From: Cupriavidus necator | GTDB taxonomy: Bacteria > Pseudomonadota > Gammaproteobacteria > Burkholderiales > Burkholderiaceae | Length of the DNA stretch: 32,000 bases | Assembly: GCF_016127575.1 (NCBI RefSeq) | Contig: NZ_CP066019.1 | Span: 2,820,001-2,852,000, forward strand | Reading direction: 5' to 3' | Part shown: piece by piece, positions 1,311 to 15,478 of the stretch | Layout: each line of letters opens with the position of its first letter | Numbering within the stretch: the stretch's first letter is position 1 | Notes under the pieces: generated by a model | Database searches by the model: none | Told to the model about the DNA's origin: nothing | The model's input: the letters and a program-made list of their open reading frames with translations, nothing else | Made by a program: the position numbers and the translations under genes

Positions 1311-1327
1311 GCGTACCCGTTTCTGCG
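1311..1327 (-). repeat. dispersed copy of the origin 17-mer (GCGTACCCGTTTCTGCG, reverse complement of CGCAGAAACGGGTACGC)
   Basis: Exact match to the iteron consensus. Lies in the zwf-edd divergent intergenic region. Confidence 0.85.
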
Positions 1328-1399
1328 TGTGCTGCGCAGTGGATCGTGCGGTACGCGGCAAAGTGCGCTAGGCTGAAAGCTCCCCCGCAGGAGAACCCC

Positions 1400-3256
1400 A
1401 TGCCACGTCATCCAGTGCTCGAGCGGGTCACCGCCCGCATCGTCTCCCGCAGCGCCGCCTCGCGCCAGGCGTACCTTGACCGCACCCACGCCATGGCCGG
1501 GCAGAAGGTCGAACGCGCGCAGCTTTCCTGTACCAACCTGGCCCATGCGGTGGCTGCCATGCCGGACGCCGCGAAGATCCGGCTGAAGGCCGACGAGCGG
1601 CCCAACCTGGCGATCGTCTCGGCCTACAACGACATGCTGTCGGCGCACCAGCCGCTGGCGGCTTTCCCTCAGTGGCTCAAGGAAGCGGCGCTCGAGGCCG
1701 GCGGCACCGCGCAGTTTGCCGGCGGCACGCCCGCGATGTGCGACGGCGTCACGCAGGGCCAGGACGGCATGGACCTGTCGCTGTTCTCGCGCGATGTGAT
1801 TGCGCTGGCCACGGCGGTGGCGCTGTCGCATCAGATGTTCGATGCCGCGCTGTACCTGGGCGTGTGCGACAAGATCGTGCCCGGGCTGGTGATGGGCGCG
1901 CTGTCGTTCGGCCACCTGCCGGCCGTGTTCGTGCCGGGCGGGCCGATGACCACCGGCATCAGCAACGACGAAAAGGCGCACACGCGCCAGCTCTACGCCG
2001 AAGGCAAGATCGGCCGCAAGGAACTGCTCGAGGCCGAGACCCGCTCCTACCACGGCCCCGGCACCTGCACCTTCTACGGCACCGCCAATTCCAACCAGAT
2101 GCTGATGGAGATGATGGGCCTGCACCTGCCGGGCACGGCCTTCGTCAACCCCAACACACCGCTGCGCGAGGCGCTCACGCGCGAGGCCGCGCGCCAGGCG
2201 CTGAAGCTGGTGCACGGCGGCGAGCGCTATACGCCGGTGGCCGAGGTGCTGGACGAGCGCGCCTTCGTCAACGGCATCGTCGGGCTGCTGGCCACCGGCG
2301 GCTCCACCAACCACACGCTGCACCTGATCGCGATGGCGCGCGTGGCCGGCATCGTGCTGGGCTGGGACGACTTTGACGAGCTCTCGGCCGTGGTGCCGCT
2401 GCTGGCGCGCGTGTACCCGAACGGCAAGGCCGACGTGAACCAGTTCCAGGCCGCAGGCGGGCTGCCCGTGGTGATCCGCGGGCTGCTGTCGCTGGGCCTG
2501 GTGCATGACGACGTGACCACCATCGTCGGCCGCGGGCTGCAGGACTACACGCGCGAACCCGTGCTGCGCGACGGCAAGCTGACCTGGATCGACGGCCCGG
2601 CCGCGCCGCTCGACGACAGCATCGTGCGCGCCGCCGACGCGCCCTTTGCGCCGGACGGCGGCATCAAGGTGCTGGACGGCAGGCTAGGCCGCGCGGTGAT
2701 CAAGACCTCTGCGGTCAAGGCCGAGCACCAGGTGGTGGAGGCACCGGCGATGGTGTTCGAGCATCAGGACGATGTGCTGCACGCATTCAAGCGCGGCGAG
2801 CTGGAGCGAGACTTCGTTGCGGTGCTACCGTGGCAGGGCCCGGCCTCGTGCGGCATGCCCGAGCTGCACAAGCTCACGCCCACGCTGACGGTGCTGCAGG
2901 ACCGCGGCTTCCATGTGGCGCTGGTGACCGACGGGCGCATGTCGGGCGCGTCGGGCAAGGTGCCGGCGGCTATTCACGTCTGCCCCGAGGCGCTGCGCGG
3001 GGGCGCGATCGGGCGCGTGCGCAGCGGCGACATGATGCGCGTGGATGCGCCCGCGGGCGTGCTCGAGGTGCTGGTGCCGGATGACGAATGGCAGGCGCGC
3101 GCGCCTGCCCGTCCGGACCTCAGCGCCAATCGCCACGGCGTGGGCCGCGACCTGTTCGCCACCTTCCGCCGCCATGTCAGCACCGCGGAAAGCGGCGCCT
3201 GCACGCTGTTTTCGGACGAGGACGACGACGACAACAACGCACCCGTGCTCGGCTAG
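1400..3256 (+). CDS. edd: phosphogluconate dehydratase (Entner-Doudoroff)
   Basis: Internal ATG of track ORF 1049..3256. The product starts [27 protein letters not shown] and continues with [17 protein letters not shown] and [11 protein letters not shown] motifs typical of the Edd/IlvD family. GGAGA lies 6 nt upstream of the ATG. Length is 618 aa. Confidence 0.93.
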
Positions 3257-4191
3257 CCCAGGTGCTGCACCGGCCGGCGCGACGCCGCGCCGGCCGGGTG
3301 CGGCGCGCTCGCCGATGGCGCGCTGTCGGCCACCTTCACCGCACCCGGCACCGAGGCGGCGCCCGGCACGTGCAATTCCTGGATCGGCACCGCCAGCTTG
3401 CTGCCGGCTTGTTCCAGCACATGCTTGATGCGCTCGTAGAACGCGAAACGCACGTTCCAGTAGTCGTCATTCGAGGTCCAGTAGCGCACGTTCAGCGTGA
3501 TGCCCTGCTGCGTGTAGTTGACCACCATGGTCTCGGGCCTGGGTTCGGCCAGCAGGCGCGGCTCGCGCGCGAGCATCGCGCGCAGCGCTTCCAGGCTGCG
3601 CTGCACATCGCTGTCGAAGGTCACCGTGGCCTCGATGTCTGCGCGCCGCGTGGCGTTCTCGCTGTAGTTGGTGATGGCGCTTCCCCACAGCTTGCCGTTT
3701 GGCACGCGCAGGCAGACGCCATCGAAGGTGGTCAGCTCGGTCATGAAGAGGCCGGTCTCGCGCACGGTGCCGGCCACCCCCTGCGCATCGATGTACTGGC
3801 CGACGCGGAACGGCCGCAGCAGCACCAGCATGATGCCGGCGGCAATGTTCTGCAGCGTGCCCTGCAGTGCCAGCCCGATGGCCAGTCCCGCGGCGCCCAG
3901 CATGGCGATGATGCTGGCGGTCTGCACCCCGAACTGCGACAGCACCAGCACGATGGTCAGCACGCGCACCATCCATTGCAGCGCGTTGGCCAGCAGCGGG
4001 CGCATGGTCTCGTCCACGTGCGTGCCGCTGAGCGCGCGCCGGGCGCCCCGGGCCACGCGGGCCGACAGCCACCAGCCGGCCATCAGGATCAGGATGGCTG
4101 CCAGGCAGTTCATTCCCTGGTTGATGGCGAACTGGACCAGGTAAGTCCAGCCCGCCTCCAGCTTGTTCGCATCGATGAAGTTCAGGTCCAT
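3253..4191 (-). CDS. MscS-family mechanosensitive ion channel
   Basis: Track ORF 3253..4314, trimmed to [10 protein letters not shown]. It has TM helices followed by [24 protein letters not shown] and [18 protein letters not shown], which are characteristic of MscS-like channels. It converges on edd with overlapping stop codons. Confidence 0.85.
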
Positions 4192-4237
4192 GGGAGCGGC
4201 TCCGTTTGCGGTTGTTATGGAGGAGACAGGCGGTGCT

Positions 4238-4254
4238 GCGTACCCGTTTCTGCG
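4238..4254 (-). repeat. dispersed copy of the origin 17-mer
   Basis: GCGTACCCGTTTCTGCG, an exact consensus match. Lies 47 bp upstream of the MscS-family start. Confidence 0.85.
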
Positions 4255-4551
4255 TGCGGCAGCGGGCTGCCAGATCGCCCCCAGGCGCCTGGCGGGGAAT
4301 TTCCCGCTTGACAACTTGCCGCACGTTGCCAGCGCGATGTCGGACGATCACCGACAATGCCGGCACGGCAATACAGTGAAGGGGACAAGCAAGGCGGGAT
4401 TTGGTTTCCGGCGATTGCGTCACGCGGTTGCGTGCAGGCGCGCCAGCCCTTGTGCAATCAAGGCTGGCGGCGGATCAGAAAAATCCGAGCGAGGGAGGAA
4501 CCAGGGGCAGCCAGGCCAGGCTCGGCGCGGCGGGCCGGCTGTGCGGCACAA

Positions 4552-4567
4552 CTTTCAGCGACGAAAG
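4552..4567. promoter_or_regulatory. degenerate copy of the parS-like palindrome (CTTTCAGCGACGAAAG)
   Basis: 14 of 16 positions match CTTTCAGCGCTGAAAG at 21084-21099. It sits inside a longer inverted repeat, CAACTTTC-N6-GAAAGTTG. Confidence 0.3.
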
Positions 4568-4614
4568 TTGGCGAATAGGGGTCGGCGATACCGCCATCCG
4601 GGCATCGACAGGGA

Positions 4615-14300: not shown

Positions 14301-14425
14301 CACGATCTCCCGGACGTTAGGCTTGTTCTTGGTTCGGGCACCCGTGTCCGCCGTCGCGGCCTGCAGCCGCGGCGGACGGTGGGGCTGAACTGGCTGCGGG
14401 CACGCACCCGCGCGCGACGTCGGTA

Positions 14426-14896
14426 TCACGAGCTGGACAGACTGCGGAGTTGCTCATCGGGCGCGGCAAGATCGTCCGCACCCACCTGGAGCTGAGCGCG
14501 GATACGCCGCCGCACAGCCTCCTTTTCACGCATCAACTCCAGGCGCGGCGCCTGCTGCGACTGGCCGGAGTATTGGTAGTAGAGCGTCTTGTAGGTCTGT
14601 TGGCTCAGGATCCATTCCTGCAACAGCGTGCGCTGGCGTGTCAGTTCGCCTTCGAGCAGGCGATGGCGGCGCAGCAGGTTGGCCACGGCCGCGCGTGCGC
14701 TGTCGCTGAGTTCGCTGTCGTCGGCAAGCAGGGCGGCCACCTCGGCCGTCGCGCCATCTTGGACGGTCCGCTTGCTGGGTGCTTCGCCTGCGGCTTCCCC
14801 CACGGCAGCCCAGGCATGATGGATGGCTCGGATGGAGCGGTTATTAGTCTCCCTGACAGGCCCGATAGCGGGTCGCCGGATCTCTCCTGCGGTCAT
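14426..14896 (-). CDS. hypothetical coiled-coil protein (156 aa)
   Basis: Track ORF with GGGGA 5 nt upstream of the ATG. It is co-oriented with and immediately upstream of the bEBP gene. No recognised family. Confidence 0.45.
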   Translation of the reverse strand: MTAGEIRRPAIGPVRETNNRSIRAIHHAWAAVGEAAGEAPSKRTVQDGATAEVAALLADDSELSDSARAAVANLLRRHRLLEGELTRQRTLLQEWILSQQTYKTLYYQYSGQSQQAPRLELMREKEAVRRRIRAQLQVGADDLAAPDEQLRSLSSS

Positions 14897-15317
14897 GATA
14901 ATCCCCGTTGAACAACATCCCCCGGCACTACACGTCTGCGGTTACCACTTGTCAGTCTTTGAACTGGTTTTTTGTCTGCGTGGCGCGCGTGTTTCCCGCA
15001 CGCTCCCGGATGGTGGCTATGCCGCCTTGTTGACGGTCTGGACCGAAATGTCCACCGACCGGCGAACGGCGCTCAAGCGCTCTCGGTTGGCTCCGGCATC
15101 CTGCCGCATGCACCGGAGTCAAGAAGGGGCGCCTTGCCGCGCCCCTCTTTGCCACGTCTATAGTTCAGTGCATTTGGGGCACTTTGTCCAGCCCCGAGTG
15201 GGTGACTTACAGCCAATCTCATACTTTGGTATGAGGCCGCGCGCACACTGGCCCCCGGCCTGCCACCGCCACCTTTTCGGACACATTACGAGCAGTCGAT
15301 GTCTGCATCCATGCTAC

Positions 15318-15334
15318 GCAGAAACGGGTACGCT
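15318..15334 (+). repeat. dispersed copy of the origin 17-mer
   Basis: CGCAGAAACGGGTACGC, exact. Intergenic. Confidence 0.85.
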
Positions 15335-15417
15335 TTGACCCCCGAACGGGTGATGGCAGCACCGTCGCCGCGGGTGCCGCAAGCCGTGCCGCATGCCCGA
15401 GGGGTGGCGGACTGTCA

Positions 15418-15434
15418 CGCAGAAACAGGTACGC
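15418..15434 (+). repeat. dispersed copy of the origin 17-mer (CAGG variant)
   Basis: CGCAGAAACAGGTACGC. Intergenic. Confidence 0.85.
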
Positions 15435-15461
15435 CCGGCCGGTGGACCCGCTCGCGCGGCA

Positions 15462-15478
15462 CGCAGAAACGGGTACGG
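15462..15478 (+). repeat. dispersed copy of the origin 17-mer
   Basis: CGCAGAAACGGGTACGG. Intergenic, 44 bp after the previous copy. Confidence 0.85.

Follow-up and report, generated by a model that had tools for sequence, protein, structure and literature searches.

To our knowledge, Vibrio is the only case in which once-per-cycle replication of a chromid has been worked out in detail. The initiator belongs to a different family in Cupriavidus and Ralstonia, two genera that include the industrial workhorse Cupriavidus necator H16 and a major plant pathogen. In Vibrio cholerae, five iterons together with a single 39-mer in a 74-kb stretch of chromosome II (chrII), 40 kb from oriII, bind RctB and inhibit initiation (Baek & Chattoraj 2014, PMC3937223). 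For Burkholderia cenocepacia c2, a supplementary table legend notes that iteron-like repeats are also present away from the origin, among them a second cluster at a distance of 140 kb (Du et al. 2016, PMC4948915). The stretch of DNA considered here (the window, 32,000 nucleotides) is 100% identical by BLAST to chromosome 2 of C. necator H16 (AM260480.1) and covers the region around the repA origin of this chromid, the second chromosome of the species. Repeats at this origin have already been described as putative RepA-binding sites (PMC2864759, PMC6379261), and 20 iteron-like repeats are listed for C. necator NH9 (PMC6379261). Neither paper mentions copies away from repA, and no analysis of such copies was found in the literature; the motif is already known, and its scattered copies are not previously described in the literature found. 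Such copies, here called outliers, lie around the origin array of C. necator and its relatives, where they have been kept by purifying selection on the DNA motif and not by chance.

The original prediction, made from the letters of the window, held that seven exact or one-mismatch copies of the putative RepA iteron CGCAGAAACGGGTACGC lie outside the array. A scan of the window reproduced all seven, four exact and three with one mismatch (Table 1), where shuffled sequences give an expectation of 0 matches at ≤1 mismatch. Six of the positions were borne out as given, and the copy placed at 15318 was off by one and starts at 15317. At ≤3 mismatches, the window holds no further copy outside 17873-19178; the right-hand 12.8 kb, from 19.2 to 32 kb, is empty, as had been claimed. 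A 21-nucleotide position weight matrix (PWM) trained on the array copies alone and scanned over the window leads to the same result. It recovers exactly the seven outliers at 29.5-33 bits and leaves 19.2-32 kb empty, the best shuffle reaching 17.7, with no intermediate scores outside the array.

Several features of the copies bear on what they might do. The 17-mer, read from its sequence, is neither palindromic nor self-complementary, and its copies have no common flanks beyond about 19 nucleotides. In four genomes, array copies depart further from the consensus than outliers do (mean mismatches, outliers vs array, 0.45 vs 0.87, 0.47 vs 1.53, 0.75 vs 1.35 and 0.94 vs 1.14), and paired outliers are often 43-56 bp apart, like the array. 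The copies at 4238 and 4615 form an inverted pair, 377 bp apart. The 21-nucleotide extended sequence of the 11667 copy is identical to that of the copy at 19162 upstream of repA (family D9), which, by analogy with known iteron plasmids, is a probable autoregulatory operator of repA. Within the array itself, the DNA near 18060-18130 is AT-rich, and DnaA boxes close to consensus lie at 18121 and 18816. Relative to the origin, the orientation of the outliers in C. necator, C. campinensis and R. solanacearum is mixed and without pattern, and a polarity of the Ter or KOPS kind was rejected on these mixed orientations.

Gene identities were taken from Pfam scans and exact-protein lookups, and coding status from genes called on the identical H16 sequence; masks of maximal open reading frames (ORFs) overcalled coding at gene 5' ends and were set aside. 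By these gene calls all seven window outliers are non-coding, as had been claimed, but the rule does not extend beyond the window. Flanks of the identical H16 source sequence were stitched on, and H16 motif counts cover the resulting 41-kb span of chromosome 2. It contains three more exact copies to the left, one of them inside glk, and a two-mismatch copy just past the right edge, at a position where five other species carry exact copies. C. necator has at least 11 outliers, from -5.4 to +32.3 kb in window numbering. Ten of the 11 are non-coding against a background of 15.3% non-coding sequence in the stitched span (binomial p=7e-8), and when independent loci are counted the ratio is 6/7 (p=8e-5). 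The further claim that no copies lie to the right of the array did not hold: since the right-hand copy lies just beyond the window, the apparent absence comes from where the window ends, and in relatives copies occur to either side of the origin. Outlier placement is lineage-dependent, and the left-only pattern is artefactual, being due to the window edge and to this species.

How sharply the motif is confined to the origin can be judged from the complete chromid of C. campinensis, which was picked by homology and not by the motif. From this chromid 800 kb were read (29%), as a contiguous ±250 kb and six distant 50-kb controls. A 118-kb zone from -31.5 to +86 kb of the origin contains 17 outliers, nine on the left and eight on the right, whereas the other 682 kb sampled contain one (at +214 kb) where about 99 would be expected at the density of the zone. 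In this sample, the zone around the origin is enriched about 100-fold in the motif, to its left and right alike. The single distal copy (L156, NZ_CP043441.1 position 1,832,516; loci are given by L numbers) is exact, isolated and apparently intergenic; its flanks align with the C. numazuensis locus L002, which itself carries an exact copy. In the 100 kb read from C. metallidurans there are 12 outliers. R. solanacearum carries 17, 12 of them on the parAB side; four lie at 401083-401264, one between convergent genes and about five inside annotated coding sequences. No R. solanacearum copy was found between 401264 and 430448, although prfC and its neighbours stay near the origin. Site positions turn over between the two genera, which have nonetheless retained site number and proximity to the origin.

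A scan of 185,579 species genomes (596 Gb) for CGCAGAAACRGGTACGC gave at least 120 blocks of 8 kb, a sample treated as roughly random. Among the blocks listed, 103 are from Cupriavidus, Ralstonia or close relatives, and 17 are isolated matches in unrelated taxa, about the chance level for a 17-mer in 596 Gb. All-against-all BLAST places 92 of the 103 listed genus blocks in five syntenic groups, which map within -31 to +86 kb in C. campinensis positions: at -31 kb, as a window-like block, and at +20, +47 and +67/+78 kb. The sole primary-chromosome candidate among the listed genus blocks is L075, on a chromosome-1-sized contig of C. necator A5-1, where the motif lies inside a phage-like ORF (L075:1986-2002) in one strain. 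An exact 17-mer is also found in an ORF of about 1000 amino acids in a low-GC mobile element, at L027:4471-4487 (a 250-kb plasmid of Cupriavidus sp. H19C3) and in L001, L074 and L091 (group F). Copies in these mobile-element and phage-like ORFs are probably incidental coding matches.

Conservation in orthologous intergenic regions, proposed in the original prediction as a test, was found for every outlier of the window, each having a counterpart at the orthologous position not only in C. campinensis and C. metallidurans, both chosen by homology, but in many other species as well. For the 4238 copy orthologs are also present in L045, L051 and L071, and for the 11667 copy in L042, L045, L068 and L078. 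The site at 15317-15478 has copies in 12/12 loci ascertained by the array, two of which (L023 and L105) are from Ralstonia; the number per locus is 2-4, apart from L021, which is truncated at its edge. Outliers stay at orthologous places even where the intergenic DNA of the species has diverged beyond alignment. For instance, in a nine-species alignment of the zwf-edd spacer, indels dominate and the spacer barely aligns outside its conserved blocks, namely the 17-mer, another short box and a short stretch surrounding the ribosome-binding site. That second box, at ~1237-1259 (TTACGTGACTCGCC...GCTTGG), is kept in nine species and is probably a target of a regulator of sugar catabolism, unrelated to the iteron.

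The strongest case for selection is the copy inside glk, which spans the codons GCC GCA GAA ACG GGT ACG CTT. Apart from a C-to-T change at position 9, all 17 bases are invariant across 11 species, third positions ending in A or T included. These are GC-poor codons in a genome with about 90% GC at third codon positions, and the adjoining codons, and even amino acids, diverge. The change at position 9 costs a Thr-to-Met substitution and is a common variant in the array too. Since the copy is invariant while its neighbours diverge, selection must act on the DNA word itself.

The natural candidate for the protein that reads this word is RepA, which is encoded beside the array. Its AlphaFold model (predicted local distance difference test score, pLDDT, 83.7) has as best Foldseek matches domains 2-3 of RctB (E=2e-5, probability 1.0) and RepE54 (probability 1.0). 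The structural alignment with RctB has 11% identity, and a sequence search of RepA against the PDB gave no match. RepA is thereby predicted to have the winged-helix fold of iteron initiators of the RctB/RepE kind; neither the Pfam scan nor the predicted fold contains a recognisable nucleotide switch. Across Cupriavidus and Ralstonia, where the motif is unchanged, RepA proteins share 92-97% identity. The figure for the pair C. necator and R. solanacearum is 92%, compared with 87% for PrfC, 82% for ParA and 74% for ParB. This high identity fits a recognition code fixed by many dispersed sites, a link that we infer. Variant usage is common to array and outliers: in C. necator the ACA variant accounts for 5/15 copies in the array and 3/11 of the outliers, as against 0/14 and 0/17 in R. 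solanacearum, and the Ralstonia-typical ATG variant has the reverse pattern.

Because all chromids with this RepA share one iteron, covariation of initiator and iteron was sought in distant small RepA_C replicons. The iteron of a Rubrivivax replicon (RepA 57% identical) is CGCTGAAAYGGGTACGC, and that of L149 (RepA 44%) is GCGCTGATTCAGGGAG. In these replicons the extra-array copies, which lie up to about 1.3 kb past repA, match the replicon's own iteron, and iteron sequence changes together with RepA lineage. One such iteron lies directly after the repA stop codon in each of three replicons (L151:11027-11047, L149:11040-11065 and L147:10976-10995), and in two of the three a second copy lies about 1.2-1.3 kb further on (L151:12336-12359 and L149:12161-12186). 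The C. necator chromid has none at the equivalent place.

A role for ParB as the binder is unlikely, as ParB has its own separate palindromic candidate parS. This palindrome, TTTCAGCGCTGAAA, has two exact copies where 0.13 matches are expected at ≤2 mismatches, and the pair occupies the same two places in C. campinensis, C. metallidurans and R. solanacearum, four genomes in all. With only two copies of the candidate parS, the centromere appears compact, whereas the initiator sites are dispersed. The start of the Cupriavidus iteron, CGCAGAAA, and the parS half-site, GCGCTGAAA, resemble each other. In the Rubrivivax replicon (L147:7300-9740 and 12138-13841), the iteron starts with CGCTGAAA and parS is TTTCTGCGCAGAAA, with five exact copies and one with one mismatch. 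The A and T at one position are swapped between iteron and parS when Cupriavidus is compared with Rubrivivax, which could be a coincidence or a rule by which RepA and ParB discriminate their sites.

What, then, might the outliers be for? Judged from the sequence evidence, they are very likely selected RepA-binding sites. The original prediction had offered three readings, and the one that appears favoured is long-range titration or handcuffing, which draws on the iteron sequence, the origin concentration, selection, the close match to the consensus and the RctB/RepE-like predicted fold of RepA. According to this reading, which seems reasonably probable to us as a whole, the outliers are auxiliary, origin-proximal RepA iterons that act on the initiator by titration or handcuffing and keep replication at once per cycle. 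RepA would bind them as it binds the origin array. Situated no more than tens of kb from the origin, they would be duplicated soon after firing, and the number of high-affinity sinks would double. This would lower free RepA, or the outliers would pair with origin iterons, or both, with handcuffing to the array as a possible component. Premature re-initiation would be blocked and the chromid held at a chromosome-like copy number. Like known titration loci, the outliers are initiator-type sites outside the minimal origin and near enough to it for early duplication (-5.4 to +32.3 kb in C. necator, -31 to +86 kb in C. campinensis). We infer both the RepA occupancy of the outliers and the negative sign of their effect. 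That they act in negative control of initiation is, by analogy, given a slightly better than even chance, and a Vibrio-like inhibitory role is proposed here because the outliers are closer to consensus than array copies and their pairs have array spacing.

A number of points weigh against titration and handcuffing. The 10 of 11 sites that are non-coding, several of them upstream of genes, also fit a transcriptional role, and the long retention of exact positions is unexplained by titration alone. The effect could be positive, through a local reservoir of the DARS or crtS kind. The right flank of the window (12.8 kb) is empty, so that no symmetric arrangement need be assumed, and the density in H16 rests on the stitched 41 kb of chromosome 2, as the genome scan does on its at least 120 blocks. 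A bolder reading, which we consider unlikely, takes the roughly 10-20 RepA boxes as a conserved origin-domain device. They would have been under DNA-level selection since before the split of Cupriavidus and Ralstonia, even in coding sequence, with RepA-iteron specificity frozen. Bridging by RepA would time initiation and organise the origin region, a plasmid-initiator analogue of marking by parS or matS and not a simple sink.

The transcriptional role, the second reading of the original prediction, would make RepA a local transcription factor and the outliers operators for zwf/edd, mscS, brkB and other genes, coupling their expression to chromid replication or to the level of RepA. Besides the bias towards non-coding DNA, it can draw on the copy just upstream of mscS, on the 1311 copy in the divergent zwf-edd promoter region and on the 19162 copy, plausibly a repA operator. 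This reading is weakened, however, by the conserved copy inside glk, by the cluster at 15.3-15.5 kb and the 4615 copy, which lie at gene 3' ends, and by the R. solanacearum copies between convergent genes and in coding sequences. The neighbouring genes are functionally unrelated. Furthermore, Ralstonia keeps the prfC neighbourhood without copies there and, on the parAB side, carries about 12 copies that make up a different set; it is therefore nearness to the origin that is conserved, not gene identity. A sigma-70 promoter scan found nothing in this 66% GC DNA. Overall, a transcriptional role seems improbable, and we give a similarly low likelihood to an architectural or positive one, in which RepA at dispersed sites would bridge to the array and fold an origin domain of about 100 kb, or build a reservoir that promotes firing or positioning in the manner of DARS, crtS or parS. 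A few dozen sites in about 120 kb around the origin do resemble clusters of parS or matS, and with parS limited to two copies at parAB there is room for another origin-marking system. Iteron initiators also pair DNA molecules by handcuffing (PMC6090056), which counts in favour of such bridging. On the other hand, the outliers are without orientation pattern. We know of no iteron initiator that acts architecturally or positively, which counts against it. Finally, all documented extra-origin iterons are inhibitory (PMC3937223).

The third reading of the original prediction, in which the motif is a mobile repeat like the repetitive extragenic palindromes (REPs), or the site of another protein such as ParB that peaks at the origin by chance, is very improbable. 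The copies are short, dispersed and mostly intergenic, and a few occur elsewhere in the phage-like and mobile-element ORFs, as a repeat family might. A dispersed repeat of the REP or bacterial interspersed mosaic element (BIME) kind is nevertheless refuted. The motif, which such an element would place equally often far from repA, is not distributed replicon-wide (17 copies in 118 kb vs 1 in 682 kb in C. campinensis, and 92/103 listed genus blocks origin-proximal). It has no palindrome or hairpin unit, its flanks are unrelated and its copies sit at orthologous positions, unlike the scatter of insertions. As for another protein, the centromere of a type Ia ParABS system would be a palindrome at parAB; the 17-mer lacks this symmetry, and the parAB genes have a conserved palindrome of their own as the candidate site of ParB. 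The iteron also changes with the RepA lineage.

The features of the window and its edges are collected in Table 1. In C. necator, the origin and repA are flanked by two genes for cold-shock-domain proteins; a cold-shock gene lies between repA and parA in R. solanacearum too, so that this linkage is conserved in both genera. A DUF3701 gene directly follows parB in C. necator, and a protein of 812 amino acids with DUF3701 and Phage_integrase domains (L147:14326-16764) adjoins parAB in Rubrivivax. The DUF3701 protein of this replicon family may be a conserved dimer-resolution recombinase.

Table 1. Outlying 17-mers, origin elements and genes in window numbering; negative positions and those above 32,000 lie in the stitched H16 flanks.
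Feature	Position	Strand	Remarks
Outliers	-5386 and -5251		exact; yccF/2-hydroxyacid dehydrogenase spacer
Outlier	-1695		exact; inside glk, 1.7 kb left of the window
zwf	start ~1173	-	gene call
Outlier	1311..1327	-	exact consensus; divergent zwf-edd spacer
edd	1400-3256	+	gene call
mscS	3253-4191	-	gene call
Outlier	4238..4254	-	exact; 47 bp upstream of mscS start
Outlier	4615..4631	+	exact; just downstream of MFS gene 3' end
MFS transporter	4651-~5900	-	3' end at 4651
TonB-dependent receptor	6250-8406	+	
prfC	8497-10098	-	
brkB	10272-11345	-	small ORFs beyond
Outlier	11667..11683	-	one mismatch, ACA variant; ~320 bp upstream of brkB, with a small called ORF on either side
Sigma-54 activator	12933-14300	-	
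156-amino-acid gene	14426-14896	-	
Three-iteron mini-array	15317..15478	+	copies at 15317 (exact), 15418 and 15462 (one mismatch each); spacing 101, 44 bp; between NCS2 permease 3' end and 156-amino-acid gene
NCS2 permease	15605-16981	-	3' end at 15605
Cold-shock-domain gene 1	~17400-17603	+	67 amino acids
Origin iteron field	17873..18955	mostly +	~19 copies at ≤3 mismatches, spaced 45-56 bp
Inverted iteron	19162..19178	-	54 bp upstream of repA start
repA	19232-20326	+	RepA_C-family initiator, 364 amino acids; Pfam PF04796
Cold-shock-domain gene 2	~20529-20732	-	67 amino acids; between repA and parA
Candidate parS palindrome CTTTCAGCGCTGAAAG	21084..21099		upstream of parA
parA	21110-21769		
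parB	21772-22785		
Candidate parS, second copy, 14-nucleotide core	21933-21946		inside parB
Integrase-like DUF3701 gene	22837-24408	-	then accessory-looking genes as far as wzc
Outlier	+32258		CGCAGAAACAGGTACAC, 2 mismatches; between wzc and acyl-carrier gene, 258 bp past window end

Extra-origin RepA boxes that can be exactly defined and are conserved offer a testable handle on copy-number control. They also carry a warning to genome engineers, since neither the intergenic 17-mers nor the glk codons containing one are likely to be neutral. From an evolutionary perspective, they suggest an independent origin of origin-proximal titration sites in two unrelated chromid lineages.

Among the known systems, P1 incA and F incC share with the outliers the placement of iterons outside the minimal origin; in those plasmids the same initiator is bound, and copy number is lowered by titration or handcuffing. 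The related small RepA_C replicons, with their one or two auxiliary copies past repA, are of this kind. Whereas P1 incA and F incC are tight arrays beside rep, the Cupriavidus sites are singles and pairs spread over about 120 kb among housekeeping genes, one of them intragenic. E. coli datA and dispersed DnaA boxes, high-affinity sites that titrate the initiator, likewise lie outside but near the origin, where they are duplicated early. However, DnaA is an AAA+ ATPase and datA acts via ATP hydrolysis, unlike RepA, which has no recognisable nucleotide switch. The iteron sequence of B. cenocepacia c2 differs from that of Cupriavidus, and the report on it presents no analysis of distribution, conservation or function. 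A further close counterpart is V. cholerae chrII, although its binding and inhibition are demonstrated and those in Cupriavidus proposed. The initiator of C. necator and C. campinensis is of the RepA_C family, their sites are more numerous (11-18) and lie on both sides of the origin, and no Dam/GATC component or 39-mer class was seen in Cupriavidus. Nor was a crtS-like site found on chromosome 1, which lay outside the DNA scanned. Yet both replicons are chromids of plasmid ancestry with single origin-type iterons spread over tens of kb near the origin, where they are duplicated early, and the RepA model and RctB domains 2-3 have an initiator fold in common.

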